A DNA stretch of 64,000 nucleotides. It comes from a virus. Taxonomy: Duplodnaviria; Caudoviricetes. Under the pieces are notes generated by a model. It was not told where the DNA came from, made no database searches, and saw nothing but the letters and a program-made list of their open reading frames with translations. The stretch covers positions 273 to 64,272 of the IMG/VR virus record IMGVR_UViG_3300046009_002028; one strand, given 5' to 3'. The translations under genes and the position numbers were made by a program. Position 1 is the first letter of the stretch, and the number at the start of each line of letters is the position of its first letter. This document shows positions 19,793 through 23,315 of the stretch, piece by piece.

Positions 19793-20707
19793 ATGGCTAT
19801 TTCACGCGCACAGTTACTTAAAGAACTATTACCAGGCTTAAATGCTTTGTTTGGTCTAGAGTACAAACGTTATGGTGAAGAACATCAAGAGATTTACGAA
19901 ACTGAATCTTCTGAGCGTTCCTTCGAAGAAGAAACAAAATTGTCTGGCTTCTCAGCAGCTCCTGTTAAAAACGAAGGCAACGCCATCGCTTACGACAATG
20001 CTCAAGAAGCTTGGACAGCTCGCTACACACACGAAACTATTGCTCTTGGCTTCAGCTTAACTGAAGAAGCTGTAGAAGATAACTTGTATGACACATTGTC
20101 TGCTCGTTATACTAAAGCATTAGCTCGTGCTATGGCGTACACAAAACAAGTTAAAGCAGCTAACGTATTGAACAACGGTTTCAACACCTCTGGTTCATAC
20201 AACGGTGGTGATGGTGTGCCATTGTTCTCAGCTTCTCACCCACTTGTTACAGGCGGTGTAAACAGCAACATTCCAACAACCCCAGCGGATTTGAACGAAA
20301 CTTCTTTAGAAGCAGCTGTTATCCAAATCGCAGCATGGACTGATGAGCGTGGTCTGTTAATTGCAGCAAAACCAGCTAAATTGATTATCCCACCAGCATT
20401 GCAATTCGTTGCAACCCGCTTGTTGGAAACTGAATTGCGTGTTGGTACTGCTGACAATGATGTCAACGCATTGAAAAACAACGGTTCAATCCCAGAAGGT
20501 TACGCAATTAACCACTTCTTGACCGACACAAATGCGTGGTTCTTAACAACTGATGTTCCTAACGGCATGAAACACTTTGTTCGTAGCCCACTAGGTACTT
20601 CAATGGATGGCGACTTTGACACTGGTAACGTACGTTACAAAGCCCGTGAGCGTTATTCATTCGGTTGGTCTGACCCATTAGGTATGTTTGGTTCAGCTGG
20701 TGCTTAA
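19793..20707 (+). CDS. major capsid protein
   Basis: MAISRAQLLKELLPGLNALFG N-terminus, 304 aa, strongly biased codons, followed by a terminator. Confidence 0.92.
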   Translation: MAISRAQLLKELLPGLNALFGLEYKRYGEEHQEIYETESSERSFEEETKLSGFSAAPVKNEGNAIAYDNAQEAWTARYTHETIALGFSLTEEAVEDNLYDTLSARYTKALARAMAYTKQVKAANVLNNGFNTSGSYNGGDGVPLFSASHPLVTGGVNSNIPTTPADLNETSLEAAVIQIAAWTDERGLLIAAKPAKLIIPPALQFVATRLLETELRVGTADNDVNALKNNGSIPEGYAINHFLTDTNAWFLTTDVPNGMKHFVRSPLGTSMDGDFDTGNVRYKARERYSFGWSDPLGMFGSAGA

Positions 20708-20724: not shown

Positions 20725-20752
20725 AAGAGGCTCACTTCGGTGGGCCTTTTTT
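20725..20752 (+). terminator. Rho-independent terminator after the capsid gene
   Basis: aggctcac-TTCG-gtgggcct-ttttt. Confidence 0.9.
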
Positions 20753-20766
20753 AATGGTTTTCCGTA

Positions 20767-20794
20767 TTGTGATATGTATAAAAAAGAACATAAT
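20767..20794 (+). promoter_or_regulatory. possible promoter for pqqA (TTGTGA-16-CATAAT)
   Basis: Imperfect hexamers between the capsid terminator and the pqqA RBS. Confidence 0.4.
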
Positions 20795-20840
20795 TCGTAC
20801 ATATACACACGACGTGTATAAAAAACAGGAGAATTTGAAC

Positions 20841-20912
20841 ATGTGGACATCACCAGCAGCTACTGAAATGCGTTTTGGCTTTGAAGTTACAATGTACGTA
20901 ATGAACAAATAG
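20841..20912 (+). CDS. pqqA: pyrroloquinoline quinone precursor peptide PqqA (MWTSPAATEMRFGFEVTMYVMNK)
   Basis: Manual translation; W-x-x-P leader, RFGFEVTMY with the E-x-x-x-Y core, 23 aa, AGGAGA RBS at 20827-20832. Confidence 0.95.
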   Translation: MWTSPAATEMRFGFEVTMYVMNK

Positions 20913-20932
20913 TCTAAACATTTGTTTAAACA

Positions 20933-21022
20933 TAGGCGGTTAAGCCGACATTAGAGGATGTAGTAAGTAACGAGTTTTTCGGCTTTCTGCGTTACATGTA
21001 ACAACTACCAAATCTACGCCTA
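20933..21022 (+). ncRNA. candidate structured RNA with pseudoknot, downstream of pqqA
   Basis: Nested helices TAGGCG/CGCCTA, TAGA/TCTA, GTAGT/ACTAC, GTAACG/CGTTAC plus crossing AAGCCGA/TCGGCTT. Confidence 0.55.
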
Positions 21023-21029
21023 ATTTATA

Positions 21030-21058
21030 TTGACAACTCCATAAAACGCTAGTATAAA
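21030..21058 (+). promoter_or_regulatory. sigma70 promoter TTGACA-17-TATAAA
   Basis: ttgaca actccataaaacgctag tataaa. Confidence 0.8.
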
Positions 21059-21069
21059 GGCTATATCAA

Positions 21070-21145
21070 CCGGGAAATTAAATCCGGCTTATTAGACTGT
21101 CCCGGCGGACGCATACAAGACTAGTAGGCTTACTTTGTATGGAGA
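21070..21145 (+). promoter_or_regulatory. structured 5' leader, candidate cis-regulatory RNA
   Basis: CCGGGA/TCCCGG, GCTTATTAG/CTAGTAGGC and CATACAAG/TTTGTATG, the last abutting the GGAGA RBS. Confidence 0.45.
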
Positions 21146-21152
21146 AATTCAA

Positions 21153-21608
21153 ATGGCTAATACCACATTCAGCGGCCCAATACGTGCCGGTAACATCCGC
21201 AACACAACAGGTACTACAGTAGGCACTAACATTGCTAACGTAGGTCAAGTTGTAATGGCACAATCACAAAAAGTATTACAATCCTCAGCTGCAACTACAA
21301 TCGTAATTCCAGCAAACAGCCAAATCGTCGAAATGACTTTATATGTAACCACTGTATGGGATGGCGTAGCTTCAACTCTAGGTCTAGGTAACACTGCATT
21401 AGCAACTGCATACACTGCAGCTGGTGCGGTAGCCGGTGGTACAGTAGGTGTTGTTTCAGTAACCCCAGGCACAGACGCAACTCGCACATTAGCTTTTGTT
21501 GATGTAGGTGCAACAGACGTTAAAATTGTTGTAACTTCAACCAACACTGGCGCTGGTGTAGGCTACTTAACAGTTCGTTACGTTCAAGCTAACAACTTAG
21601 TTGCTTAA
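21153..21608 (+). CDS. virion structural protein (capsid-associated); start reassigned to ATG 21153
   Basis: MANTTFSGPIRAG N-terminus; GGAGA RBS at 21141-21145; capsid-like codon bias. Confidence 0.75.
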   Translation: MANTTFSGPIRAGNIRNTTGTTVGTNIANVGQVVMAQSQKVLQSSAATTIVIPANSQIVEMTLYVTTVWDGVASTLGLGNTALATAYTAAGAVAGGTVGVVSVTPGTDATRTLAFVDVGATDVKIVVTSTNTGAGVGYLTVRYVQANNLVA

Positions 21609-22184: not shown

Positions 22185-22319
22185 ATGATAATTAATGAAA
22201 ACGGCTGGGGCGACAAAAAAGAACCTGAAGCTAAAGCAGAAGTTAAAGATGTTCGCAAAGCTAAACTTCAAAAAGACGCGCCTGTTAAAGAGGTAGTGGA
22301 AGATGCCGAGCAAGAGTAA
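22185..22319 (+). CDS. 44-aa charged peptide, not in ORF track
   Basis: AGGA RBS; MIINENGWGDKKEP... Confidence 0.45.
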   Translation: MIINENGWGDKKEPEAKAEVKDVRKAKLQKDAPVKEVVEDAEQE

Positions 22320-22686
22320 ACCTCAAGCTAAGCTGATGGCTGCGGCCGCTCATAACCCTAAATTTGCTAAGAAGGTGGGTATTCCTACTAAAGTAGCAAA
22401 AGAGTTTAATGAAGCGGACAAGGGCAAGACCTTTAAAAAGGGCGGTGTATCATTAGCCGTTGGTCGTGGTGAGAAACTAGCTACCGATAAAGGCGCTGGA
22501 CTTACTGCTAAAGGACGCGCAAAATACAATGCAGCAACAGGGTCTAACTTGAAAGCTCCTCAGCCAGAAGGTGGTCCTCGCAAGAAATCGTTTTGTGCCC
22601 GTATGTCAGGTATGCCAGGCCCAATGAAAGACGAGAATGGCAAACCTACTCGTAAAGCAGCGTCATTAAAACGTTGGAAATGTTAA
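22303..22686 (+). CDS. basic Lys-rich virion-region protein
   Basis: MPSKS..Q..LMAAAAHNP.FAKK and GL.AKGRA.YN...RKKSFCARM...SL.RW.C motifs. Confidence 0.75.
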   Translation: MPSKSKPQAKLMAAAAHNPKFAKKVGIPTKVAKEFNEADKGKTFKKGGVSLAVGRGEKLATDKGAGLTAKGRAKYNAATGSNLKAPQPEGGPRKKSFCARMSGMPGPMKDENGKPTRKAASLKRWKC

Positions 22687-22696
22687 TAAAGGAACT

Positions 22697-22894
22697 ATGA
22701 TGGCTAAAGAAAACACAAAAATGGACATGGCGCAGGACAAGAAAACAGTTAAGAAAGCTGTTGGCATGCATGATAAACAAATGCACGGTGGCAAGAAAAC
22801 TGACCTAGCAGCCCTTAAAAAAGGTGGTTGCACTAAAATGGCTAAAGGTGGCGGCATTGAAGTTCGCGGTAAGACACGCGGGAAGATGTGCTAA
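22697..22894 (+). CDS. small basic protein with xKGG motifs
   Basis: LKKGG, MAKGG, RGKTRG. Confidence 0.7.
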   Translation: MMAKENTKMDMAQDKKTVKKAVGMHDKQMHGGKKTDLAALKKGGCTKMAKGGGIEVRGKTRGKMC

Positions 22895-23160
22895 TTATGG
22901 CTAAGAAAATAGAAGCATGGGAAGCAGAAGTAGACAACGGGTCTGCAACACCAACACCCCCAAAAAAATCTGCACCTCCGCCACCTCCACCACCCCCTCC
23001 AGCTCCAAAGGCTAAGGCCAAGGTTAAGGCTAAACAAAAAACATACCCTATCGGTCAAACCGAAGATGATATGAGTATCAACATGAAAAAAGGTGGTTCA
23101 GTAGGTTCAGCATCTAGACGCGCCGACGGCTGCGCAGTACGTGGTAAAACTAGGGCCTAA
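22888..23160 (+). CDS. small basic Pro-rich protein with MKKGG motif
   Basis: MKKGG..SAS.RADG.A.RGKTRA. Confidence 0.7.
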   Translation: MLIMAKKIEAWEAEVDNGSATPTPPKKSAPPPPPPPPPAPKAKAKVKAKQKTYPIGQTEDDMSINMKKGGSVGSASRRADGCAVRGKTRA

Positions 23161-23162
23161 TT

Positions 23163-23315
23163 ATGAGACCGTCACGCGGAATGGGTATAATCAACCCAAA
23201 CAAAATGCCCGGTAAAAAGCCGCGCATTATTACGCGTAAGGATGACCCAAATAAGGTTGATGTGTATAAACGAGGCGGAAAGATAAACTTTCCTGCCCTA
23301 TCACAAAGGAAATAA
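23163..23315 (+). CDS. 50-aa basic protein (MRPSRGMG...YKRGG...), not in ORF track
   Basis: Manual translation; fills the operon gap. Confidence 0.65.
   Translation: MRPSRGMGIINPNKMPGKKPRIITRKDDPNKVDVYKRGGKINFPALSQRK

Follow-up and report, generated by a model that had tools for sequence, protein, structure and literature searches.

A pseudoknotted RNA domain behind pqqA in an uncultured phage and its relation to the Rhizobiales RNA Atu_At1

The pqqA locus of the phage genome

The window analysed here is a whole stretch of 64,000 nt from an IMG/VR virus record of 64,272 bases, which CheckV estimates to be complete. It contains an RNA element that is single-copy in the window and lies in a region where all genes are on the + strand:

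19793-20707, +, major capsid gene (Pfam Phage_capsid_4, Mu-like_gpT)
20729-20752, +, canonical intrinsic terminator after the capsid gene (7-bp hairpin 20729-20746, T6 20747-20752)
20767-20794, +, promoter-like site upstream of pqqA, TTGTGA-16-CATAAT (consensus match only)
20841-20912, +, pqqA, 23 codons plus stop, MWTSPAATEMRFGFEVTMYVMNK (Pfam PqqA, 37.9 bits, E 1.7e-9)
20933-21022, +, whole pseudoknotted RNA domain, P1 to P1 (117.7 bits, E 1.6e-29 to covariance model R1)
21023-21031, +, U-rich tract AUUUAUAUU immediately behind P1 (up to 6 U per 8 nt)
21030-21058, +, promoter-like TTGACA-17-TATAAA, putative start of the next transcription unit (kept in L002, L083, L088 and L115)

The capsid gene shows about 64-65% DNA identity with its counterparts in the Pelagibacter phages HTVC023P, HTVC027P and related phages, and the terminator behind it is covered by weak terminator-type Rfam matches (STnc40, isrB). 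The pqqA gene is preceded by AGGAG at 20826-20830 and shows 80-90% DNA identity with pqqA of Methylophilales phages, where it is unannotated or labelled "hypothetical". Viral pqqA itself was already known, from viruses infecting freshwater methylotrophs, according to the available part of an earlier report (PMC7678222). The element starts 20 nt past the pqqA stop codon, in agreement with a first-pass annotation of the sequence that had placed it directly 3' of pqqA, and the next gene downstream begins at 21153. Promoter-consensus sites as such are not in excess in this region (5 found versus 6.2 expected). The promoter-like site at 21030-21058 was missed by the automatic scan because the scan rule demands a T at position 6 of the second hexamer; the same arrangement after P1 recurs in sequence classes beyond the four loci listed above. 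No tRNA or tmRNA genes were found in the window (ARAGORN).

Among 80 close capsid-gene relatives, the element is found in L002 only and pqqA in L002 and L010 only. This rarity indicates that pqqA plus element behaves as an inserted cassette.

Architecture and covariation of the element

The element consists of four nested helices, closed back on themselves by a pseudoknot:

20933-20938 / 21017-21022, +, P1, TAGGCG/CGCCTA (6 of 6 pairs covary in the 75-copy alignment)
20939-20951, +, J1/2, GUUAAGCCGACAU, holding the pseudoknot 5' strand 20942-20948 (GUUAA and ACA near-invariant)
20952-20955 / 21013-21016, +, P2, TAGA/TCTA (3 of 4 pairs covary)
20956-20959, +, GGAU, 5' strand of the internal loop between P2 and P3 (unchanged in all 61 rows)
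20960-20964 / 21004-21008, +, P3, GTAGT/ACTAC (5 of 5 pairs covary)
20967-20972 / 20990-20995, +, P4, GTAACG/CGTTAC (5 of 6 pairs covary in 61 copies, 6 of 6 in 75 copies)
20973-20989, +, P4 loop, AGUUUUUCGGCUUUCUG, with the pseudoknot 3' strand at 20979-20985
20996-21003, +, J4/3, AUGUAACA, variable; site of an extra hairpin in long (Atu_At1-type) forms
21009-21012, +, CAAA, 3' side of the P2/P3 internal loop, conserved (alignment columns A83, A84 and T85 invariant)

The P4 loop sequence TCGGCTT (20979-20985) is the exact reverse complement of AAGCCGA (20942-20948), giving 7 bp. All four helices and the pseudoknot had been proposed by the first-pass annotation, and each is found at the positions that it gave.

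Thermodynamic significance was dropped as a line of support. The minimum free energy (MFE) of the + strand is −18.7 kcal/mol (z = −0.11), with 81 of 200 shuffles folding equally well, and the minus strand gives z = −0.63; these scores are uninformative, since a nested-only MFE leaves the pseudoknot out. The unconstrained MFE structure differs from the proposed nested fold, which has −14.9 kcal/mol and becomes the MFE structure (−16.3 kcal/mol) once both pseudoknot strands are held single-stranded. The pseudoknot duplex alone contributes about −9.4 kcal/mol.

Comparative evidence is decisive instead. In an alignment of 61 distinct copies from phages, standard pairs fill 97.3% of the pair cells, versus 34-41% when the partners are slid, and 18 of the 21 nested pairs show compensatory changes. 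Covariance model R1, which was built from phage copies with the nested helices only and with the pseudoknot left out, aligned 79 hits, 75 of them distinct and together more diverse than the 61-copy set. In this alignment compensatory changes are found in 24 of 28 pairs, including four of the seven pseudoknot pairs, and none of 500 shuffles attains any of five covariation measures. A separate pseudoknot scan, with the four central positions left free on both strands, returned 162 copies, of which 159 have a Watson-Crick core in 13 different versions; the remaining three each differ by one G-U wobble, on the + strand. Inner pairs likewise contain G-U more often than A-C (12 versus 3), indicating that the + strand is the RNA. 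The element is therefore a real, strongly conserved pseudoknotted RNA, far beyond chance expectation, which bears out the structured RNA predicted from the single sequence. About 25 unpaired nucleotides (GUUAA, ACA, GGAU, U5, UUUC and CAAAU) are nearly invariant from Rhizobiales to betaproteobacterial phages.

Relation to the Atu_At1 family

Searching the 126-nt stretch 20915-21040 against Rfam gave a single match, RF02496 Atu_At1, at 17.8 bits (E 0.65). With a gathering threshold of 60 bits, the element is by Rfam's own criterion not a member of that family, and searches with 3 kb, with the whole window or with the divergent copies L095, L118, L121 and L127 returned nothing at the element. 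The first-pass annotation had seen no resemblance to hammerhead, twister, pistol or HDV ribozymes; Rfam 15 gives no match to these at E ≤ 10, nor to hatchet or twister-sister. The same annotation had considered the RNA to be uncharacterised, and this needs qualification: the Rfam search it proposed yields no match at threshold, but it does reveal a sub-threshold, distant relationship with Atu_At1 that is further supported by intermediates at 50-67 bits.

The RF02496 alignment is full-length, spanning exactly 20929-21022 and model positions 1-108. Atu_At1 and the element have the same order of parts (P1, bulge, P2, GGAU, P3, AA, P4, CAA(A), P2', P1'), and both have U5-NNNN-UUUC in the P4 loop, so that the element carries the complete Atu_At1 junction and loop signature (G-UYAA-NNNN-AC, GGAU, U5-NNNN-UUUC, CAA). 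The complementarity of loop and bulge is also common to both, in the versions AACCGGA/UCCGGUU, AAGCGGA/UCCGCUU and AAGCCGA/UCGGCUU. The printed structure line of the Rfam model has a local hairpin in place of the bulge and no pseudoknot. In contrast to Atu_At1 (about 100-120 nt), the element is about 90 nt long and lacks the extra hairpin between P4 and P3 (GCC-AACGAAA-GGC), having only AUGUAACA there. Rhizobiales copies do have this hairpin, as do the viral long forms L163, L164, L191 and L208. The two also differ in context, the element lying in phage DNA after genes and Atu_At1 at the start of EcfG-type stress transcripts, and U-rich tracts follow the phage copies but not the Rhizobiales copies.

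A chain of intermediates connects the element with bona fide RF02496 members. Viral long forms that have the AAGCCGA pseudoknot of the window score 66.8, 63.4, 51.8 and 49.8 bits to RF02496, and all six Rhizobiales loci tested score 80.6-121.3 bits, while the phage-type copies L255, L276 and L288 stay below threshold. Conversely, R1 detects both the viral long forms and Rhizobiales copies, the latter at the right place with E-values of 0.002-0.5. Based on these intermediates, the common architecture and the conserved loops, we read the element as a minimised phage variant, and distant relative, of the Atu_At1 family. As a feature it is real, and it is a new variant within a family that is functionally uncharacterised.

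In the main texts of openly accessible papers, we found no description of the motif. The one co-mention of pqqA and a riboswitch that we found is a c-di-GMP riboswitch beside pqqA in Methylophaga (PMC12530212, available part). The accessible main texts of a second Agrobacterium ncRNA survey (PMC3738593) and of a paper on nonhomologous end joining (NHEJ; PMC6379672) do not mention the RNA, which their supplements may list.

Rhizobiales copies lie at the 5' ends of stress transcripts

According to the available text of Wilms et al. 2012 (PMC3384568), At1 lies between atu5055 and atu5056 in Agrobacterium and accumulates as a discrete species, measured at 113 nt by dRNA-seq and at 115 nt on Northern blots, with the strongest signal at high optical density or in stationary phase; no function is given there. 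The gene downstream of At1 is ligD (atu5055). By the same account, this homologue is transcribed in the same sense as the + strand of the element.

A pattern in which two pseudoknot positions may be either G or C matches at least 120 places in bacterial genomes. The family signature is present in 102 of them, nearly all labelled Rhizobiales, and in these signature copies the pseudoknot is always complementary, mostly as AACCGGA/UCCGGUU and eight times as AAGCGGA/UCCGCUU; the 11 non-complementary matches all lack the signature. The AAGCCGA/UCGGCUU version occurs in three of the signature copies and in three further matches, which are the phage-type copies L255, L276 and L288. P1-to-P1 length in Rhizobiales copies ranges from 99 to 128 nt. 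Copies are found in 185 plasmid records, between annotated genes among the matches listed, and in pAtNT1RE the copy (L343, 3501-3598) is followed after 58 nt by ligD in the same orientation. Downstream ORFs, scored at 42 loci, encode LigD (12), PAS kinases (4), general-stress-type proteins and others, also DUF763. Some Rhizobiales copies face a convergent ORF.

We observe that a strict EcfG-type motif (GGAAC-N15-18-(C/G/A)GTT) precedes 37 of the 102 copies, versus 22 of 2400 control windows, with the motif ending 17-22 nt before the pattern start in 36 of the 102. This fits the EcfG/RpoE2 control of Sinorhizobium ligD4 that is described in the available part of PMC6379672. No enrichment of U-rich tracts after P1 was seen in Rhizobiales, where 55 of 101 copies were placeable and distribute like the control. 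Rhizobiales relatives sit at transcript 5' ends, unlike the copy in the window, which follows pqqA.

Several copies occur in some Rhizobiales genomes (L230/L284, L246/L297 and L274/L299).

Distribution and placement of phage copies

At least 165 copies of the element are present in IMG/VR contigs. An exact 20-mer from it matches 60 IMG/VR stretches, and looser patterns match at least 119 and at least 120. The borders of the copies are sharp at P1, and the flanks on either side fall into many unrelated classes. In the GenBank phage collection (50,697 records) the element alone gives no match, the element together with its flanks gives matches to the capsid gene and pqqA and to nothing else, and none of its cultured phages is shown to have the element.

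In the presumed host family (that of G001, a Methylotenera-labelled MAG with L276), the element was found in two of 151 genomes, a count for which 27 candidates were scored per genome, so that weak copies could be missed. Given this low number, we rejected the idea that the element was copied along with the pqqA gene of the host. Phage-type copies are found in three betaproteobacterial MAG contigs (L255, L276 and L288); in two betaproteobacterial MAG contigs the genes beside the element are those that also lie beside viral copies, and one contig with a phage-type copy may be bacterial.

Of the 165 viral copies, 84 are preceded by a same-strand pqqA ORF no more than 300 nt away, with a median distance of 21 nt from its stop codon to P1. 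In most of the listed contexts without pqqA, another same-strand ORF stops no more than a few tens of nt before the element, in many no more than about 10 nt; such ORFs include the capsid gene, and a few contexts have no close ORF. The element lies at convergent junctions in 35 of 75 distinct contexts with two neighbours of at least 80 aa, compared with 163 of 1345 ORF junctions in the same DNA, an approximately fourfold enrichment. The most common downstream neighbours are genes for HNH endonucleases (16 of 79) and endolysins (10 of 79).

The sequence directly behind P1 is also distinctive. A U-rich tract (at least 5 T in the 8 nt directly after P1) is present in 48 of 83 distinct contexts versus 11% of controls, and a stricter one (at least 6 T in 8 nt) in 26 of 83 versus 3%; some copies, e.g. 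L351, L359 and L288, have tails of U7-8, and 35 of the 83 contexts have no U-rich tract. The first-pass annotation had excluded an intrinsic terminator for want of a U-tail, an argument that falls away with these counts and with the tract AUUUAUAUU of the window copy. A sigma-70-like promoter, TTGAC(A/G)-N16-18-TAnnn(T/A), starting at −1 to +21 nt relative to P1 was found in 18 of 89 distinct contexts versus 15 of 2670 controls. On the upstream side, inspection by eye revealed no consistent −10/−35 at a workable distance before P1 in phages, and a bidirectional terminator was rejected, as the flanks beside P1 there are not A-rich (by eye). A canonical terminator directly precedes the element in 5 of 83 contexts by rule, and by eye L002, L113, L121, L209 and L222 sit directly behind one; in such copies the element would be redundant or reached by read-through only. 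Where pqqA occurs without the element (L010 and the cultured phages Venkman, MEP301 and P19250A), a simple hairpin or terminator lies within about 70 nt in four of four cases by eye, two of which are called by the terminator rule.

Two IMG/VR contigs hold two copies of the element each (L096/L110 and L087/L134). Both copies of the former follow a copy of pqqA, while in the latter one copy follows pqqA and the other follows sequence that ends like pqqA. In L099, L133 and L184 a 150-aa ORF immediately upstream of the element ends in ...AKEYVMNK or ...AKDFVTGK, the first of which has the same final residues as PqqA (YVMNK) and gives the impression of an ORF joined to what is left of a pqqA gene. 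In the cultured Methylophilaceae phage P19250A (L386, 1-195), pqqA adjoins a gene annotated as a GGDEF/EAL protein with PAS sensors.

RNA-library contigs

RNA-library contigs from three studies contain the element, which is weak evidence of transcription, DNA carry-over being possible; as assembled contigs they attest presence rather than ends, strand or level. The analysis covered four of 19 runs, all 19 being in contig form. An 83-nt contig (X1) is identical to the window and runs from pqqA into the element, X10 has pqqA and element on one contig with a different spacer, and X5 (record 24) runs from pqqA through the element into the next gene.

A possible 3'-end module and the alternatives to it

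The reading that we favour, and that we would put at somewhat short of an even chance, is that the element serves as a cis-acting terminator and 3'-end-protecting module. The RNA domain would be made as the 3' end of the pqqA transcript, where the stack of four helices P1-P4 would fold over, bringing the P4 loop into pairing with the P1/P2 bulge. The G+C-rich P1/P2 together with the U-rich tract could then end or pause transcription at the border of the pqqA unit, before the next promoter, and the fold, locked by the pseudoknot, may stay behind as a cap that 3'-to-5' exonucleases have difficulty unwinding. As a result the very short pqqA message would accumulate, for a peptide that is used one per PQQ molecule. 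Selection at the RNA level, placement at unit ends and the frequent U-rich sequence behind P1 speak in favour of this module, as does the positional equivalence in the four element-less cases, in which a hairpin or terminator takes its place after pqqA. The discrete length of At1 (PMC3384568, available text), which equals the P1-to-P1 domain without a U-tract, also fits a trimming-resistant fold. Against it stand the contexts without a U-tract (35 of 83), the copies directly behind a canonical terminator, the 5' rather than 3' position of the Rhizobiales relatives, the X5 contig that continues into the next gene, and a P1 that closes a domain of about 80 nt, unlike the short-loop hairpins of known intrinsic terminators. 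The near-invariant unpaired bases, moreover, exceed the needs of a passive terminator and are typical of aptamers or ribozymes. Stabilisation of the 3' end of pqqA mRNA had been among the functions first suggested for the element, and this comes close to what we consider the best reading, except that the element is not specific to pqqA (84 of 165 copies).

Intrinsic terminators resemble the element in having a G+C-rich helix that abuts a U-rich tract (P1 has four G-C among its six pairs, followed by AUUUAUAUU), after stop codons, at convergent junctions and before promoters. They differ in that the "loop" of the element is a three-helix pseudoknotted domain of about 78-80 nt with invariant unpaired bases; in the window it measures 78 nt, and the automatic terminator rule does not call it. 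The exonuclease-resistant RNAs (xrRNAs) of flaviviruses and plant viruses, which block the 5'-to-3' exonuclease Xrn1 and adopt a three-way-junction ring fold, are likewise small pseudoknots in which nucleotides making tertiary contacts are conserved, and a stable RNA fragment remains whose end coincides with the fold. Both the Xrn1 5'-to-3' block and the ring fold set them apart from the element; to our knowledge, no bacterial xrRNA is known. THF-I riboswitch aptamers are, like the element, elongated hairpins with a bend that lets the apical loop base-pair with an internal loop close to the foot of the helix. Their conserved nucleotides are different, no such model matches the element in Rfam at E ≤ 10, and the genes beside the element vary too much for a consistent association.

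The main rival is a sensor RNA, which we regard as possible but doubtful. Here the pocket formed by GUUAA/ACA and GGAU/CAAA with the pseudoknot would bind a small molecule or a protein, stabilise P1/P2 and so set termination, with the effect of an attenuator in the stress-gene leaders of Rhizobiales and of a conditional terminator where phage units end. Unpaired nucleotides conserved at the level of an aptamer across very distant hosts point in this direction, as do the U-tract directly behind P1 in phages and, in Rhizobiales, an RNA that begins at an EcfG-type promoter (37/102 versus 22/2400), often with ligD downstream (12 of 42 scored ORFs; 58 nt away in pAtNT1RE). A short, discrete transcript of 113-115 nt, as given in the available text on At1, is also seen with many riboswitches. 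However, in about half of the phage contexts (35 of 75) the next gene is convergent, leaving nothing downstream to regulate, in others a promoter intervenes, and the ORF behind some Rhizobiales copies is convergent too. Neither lineage shows a tight gene association, the neighbours being diverse, and the phage copies lie downstream of genes, whereas a riboswitch would be expected as an aptamer upstream of a consistent gene set. No ligand is suggested by the context. PQQ, for which a ligand-binding RNA had initially been proposed to be tested, is an improbable one, as no pqq gene adjoins any Rhizobiales copy or roughly every second phage copy (only 84 of 165 have pqqA upstream); a PQQ riboswitch was rejected on these grounds. 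The remaining readings are less probable still. A stable RNA acting in trans, i.e., a domain trimmed from any carrier transcript and serving for instance as decoy for a host RNA-binding protein or RNase, which phages would express late to manipulate the host, would explain borders that are sharp and independent of context, the occurrence in 5' leaders, at 3' ends and stand-alone, the two contigs with two copies each, and a discrete At1 that is highest at high optical density (available text of PMC3384568). We consider it unlikely, since no gene for a partner protein co-occurs (the commonest neighbours being those for HNH endonucleases, 16 of 79, and endolysins, 10 of 79) and the presumed host family rarely has the element (2 of 151); contig depth in the RNA libraries, a poor measure, is no higher over the element than over the next gene.

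Two further explanations concern cleavage and DNA mobility. A compact pseudoknotted fold with invariant junction nucleotides would suit a self-cleaving ribozyme of a new class, cutting at one domain border to give an RNA end without a terminator. Twister, pistol and hatchet ribozymes are abundant in phages and found in varied contexts, much like the element, and the 3' end of At1 at the end of P1 without a U-tract (available text of PMC3384568) would agree with such a cut. With no Rfam ribozyme model matching at E ≤ 10, an orientation that is tied to the upstream gene, and a U-tract enrichment that termination explains better, we give a ribozyme only a slim chance. Least probable of all, in our view, is a DNA-level site for recombination or homing, by which the pqqA cassette would pass from phage to phage. 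Its patchy presence (element in 1 and pqqA in 2 of 80 capsid-gene relatives), near-identical copies amid unrelated flanks, and HNH endonuclease genes as the commonest downstream neighbour (16 of 79) count in favour of such a site; yet pairing-preserving changes, the pseudoknot and strand-specific G-U wobbles all indicate selection on the RNA fold, and the homologue At1 is, by the available account, a detected RNA.

Implications for the superfamily

What had been a Rhizobiales sRNA entry becomes a widespread structured-RNA superfamily with a well-supported pseudoknot, conservation of riboswitch or ribozyme grade, and a range that now includes uncultured phages. New here are a phage mini-form that is abundant, a pseudoknot proven by covariation, the terminator-like context, and the link between phage copies at 3' ends and Rhizobiales copies in stress leaders. 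Tentatively, and with well under even confidence, we suggest that the Atu_At1 superfamily could be a new functional RNA class, namely a terminator gated by a ligand or a protein, or else the equivalent of exonuclease-resistant RNAs in bacteria and phages. If so, this class would serve Alphaproteobacteria where general-stress transcripts have their 5' end and phages of freshwater methylotrophs where short, highly expressed messages have their 3' end, and the gated-terminator option would make it an orphan riboswitch class tied to stress physiology. The phage form of about 90 nt is a natural minimal version with hundreds of variants, which makes it suited to structure determination and a substrate for asking whether pseudoknotted folds end or protect bacterial and phage transcripts. 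It also bears on how phages boost the auxiliary gene pqqA in infected methylotrophs.

Further features downstream in the window

The leader of the gene at 21153 (21081-21152) is conserved in at least 14 capsid-gene relatives that have neither pqqA nor the element. It contains a hairpin, GCUUAUUAG...CUAGUAGGC, with compensatory changes in 5 of 14 predicted pairs (10 sequences), as well as an invariant stretch, GACGCAUAC, and may be a second structured RNA, a 5' leader. Further downstream, at 22303-23315, four consecutive small basic ORFs of 127, 65, 90 and 50 aa, one of which has a run of nine prolines, share a K-(K/R)-GG ... RGK-type motif and look like a paralogous series.
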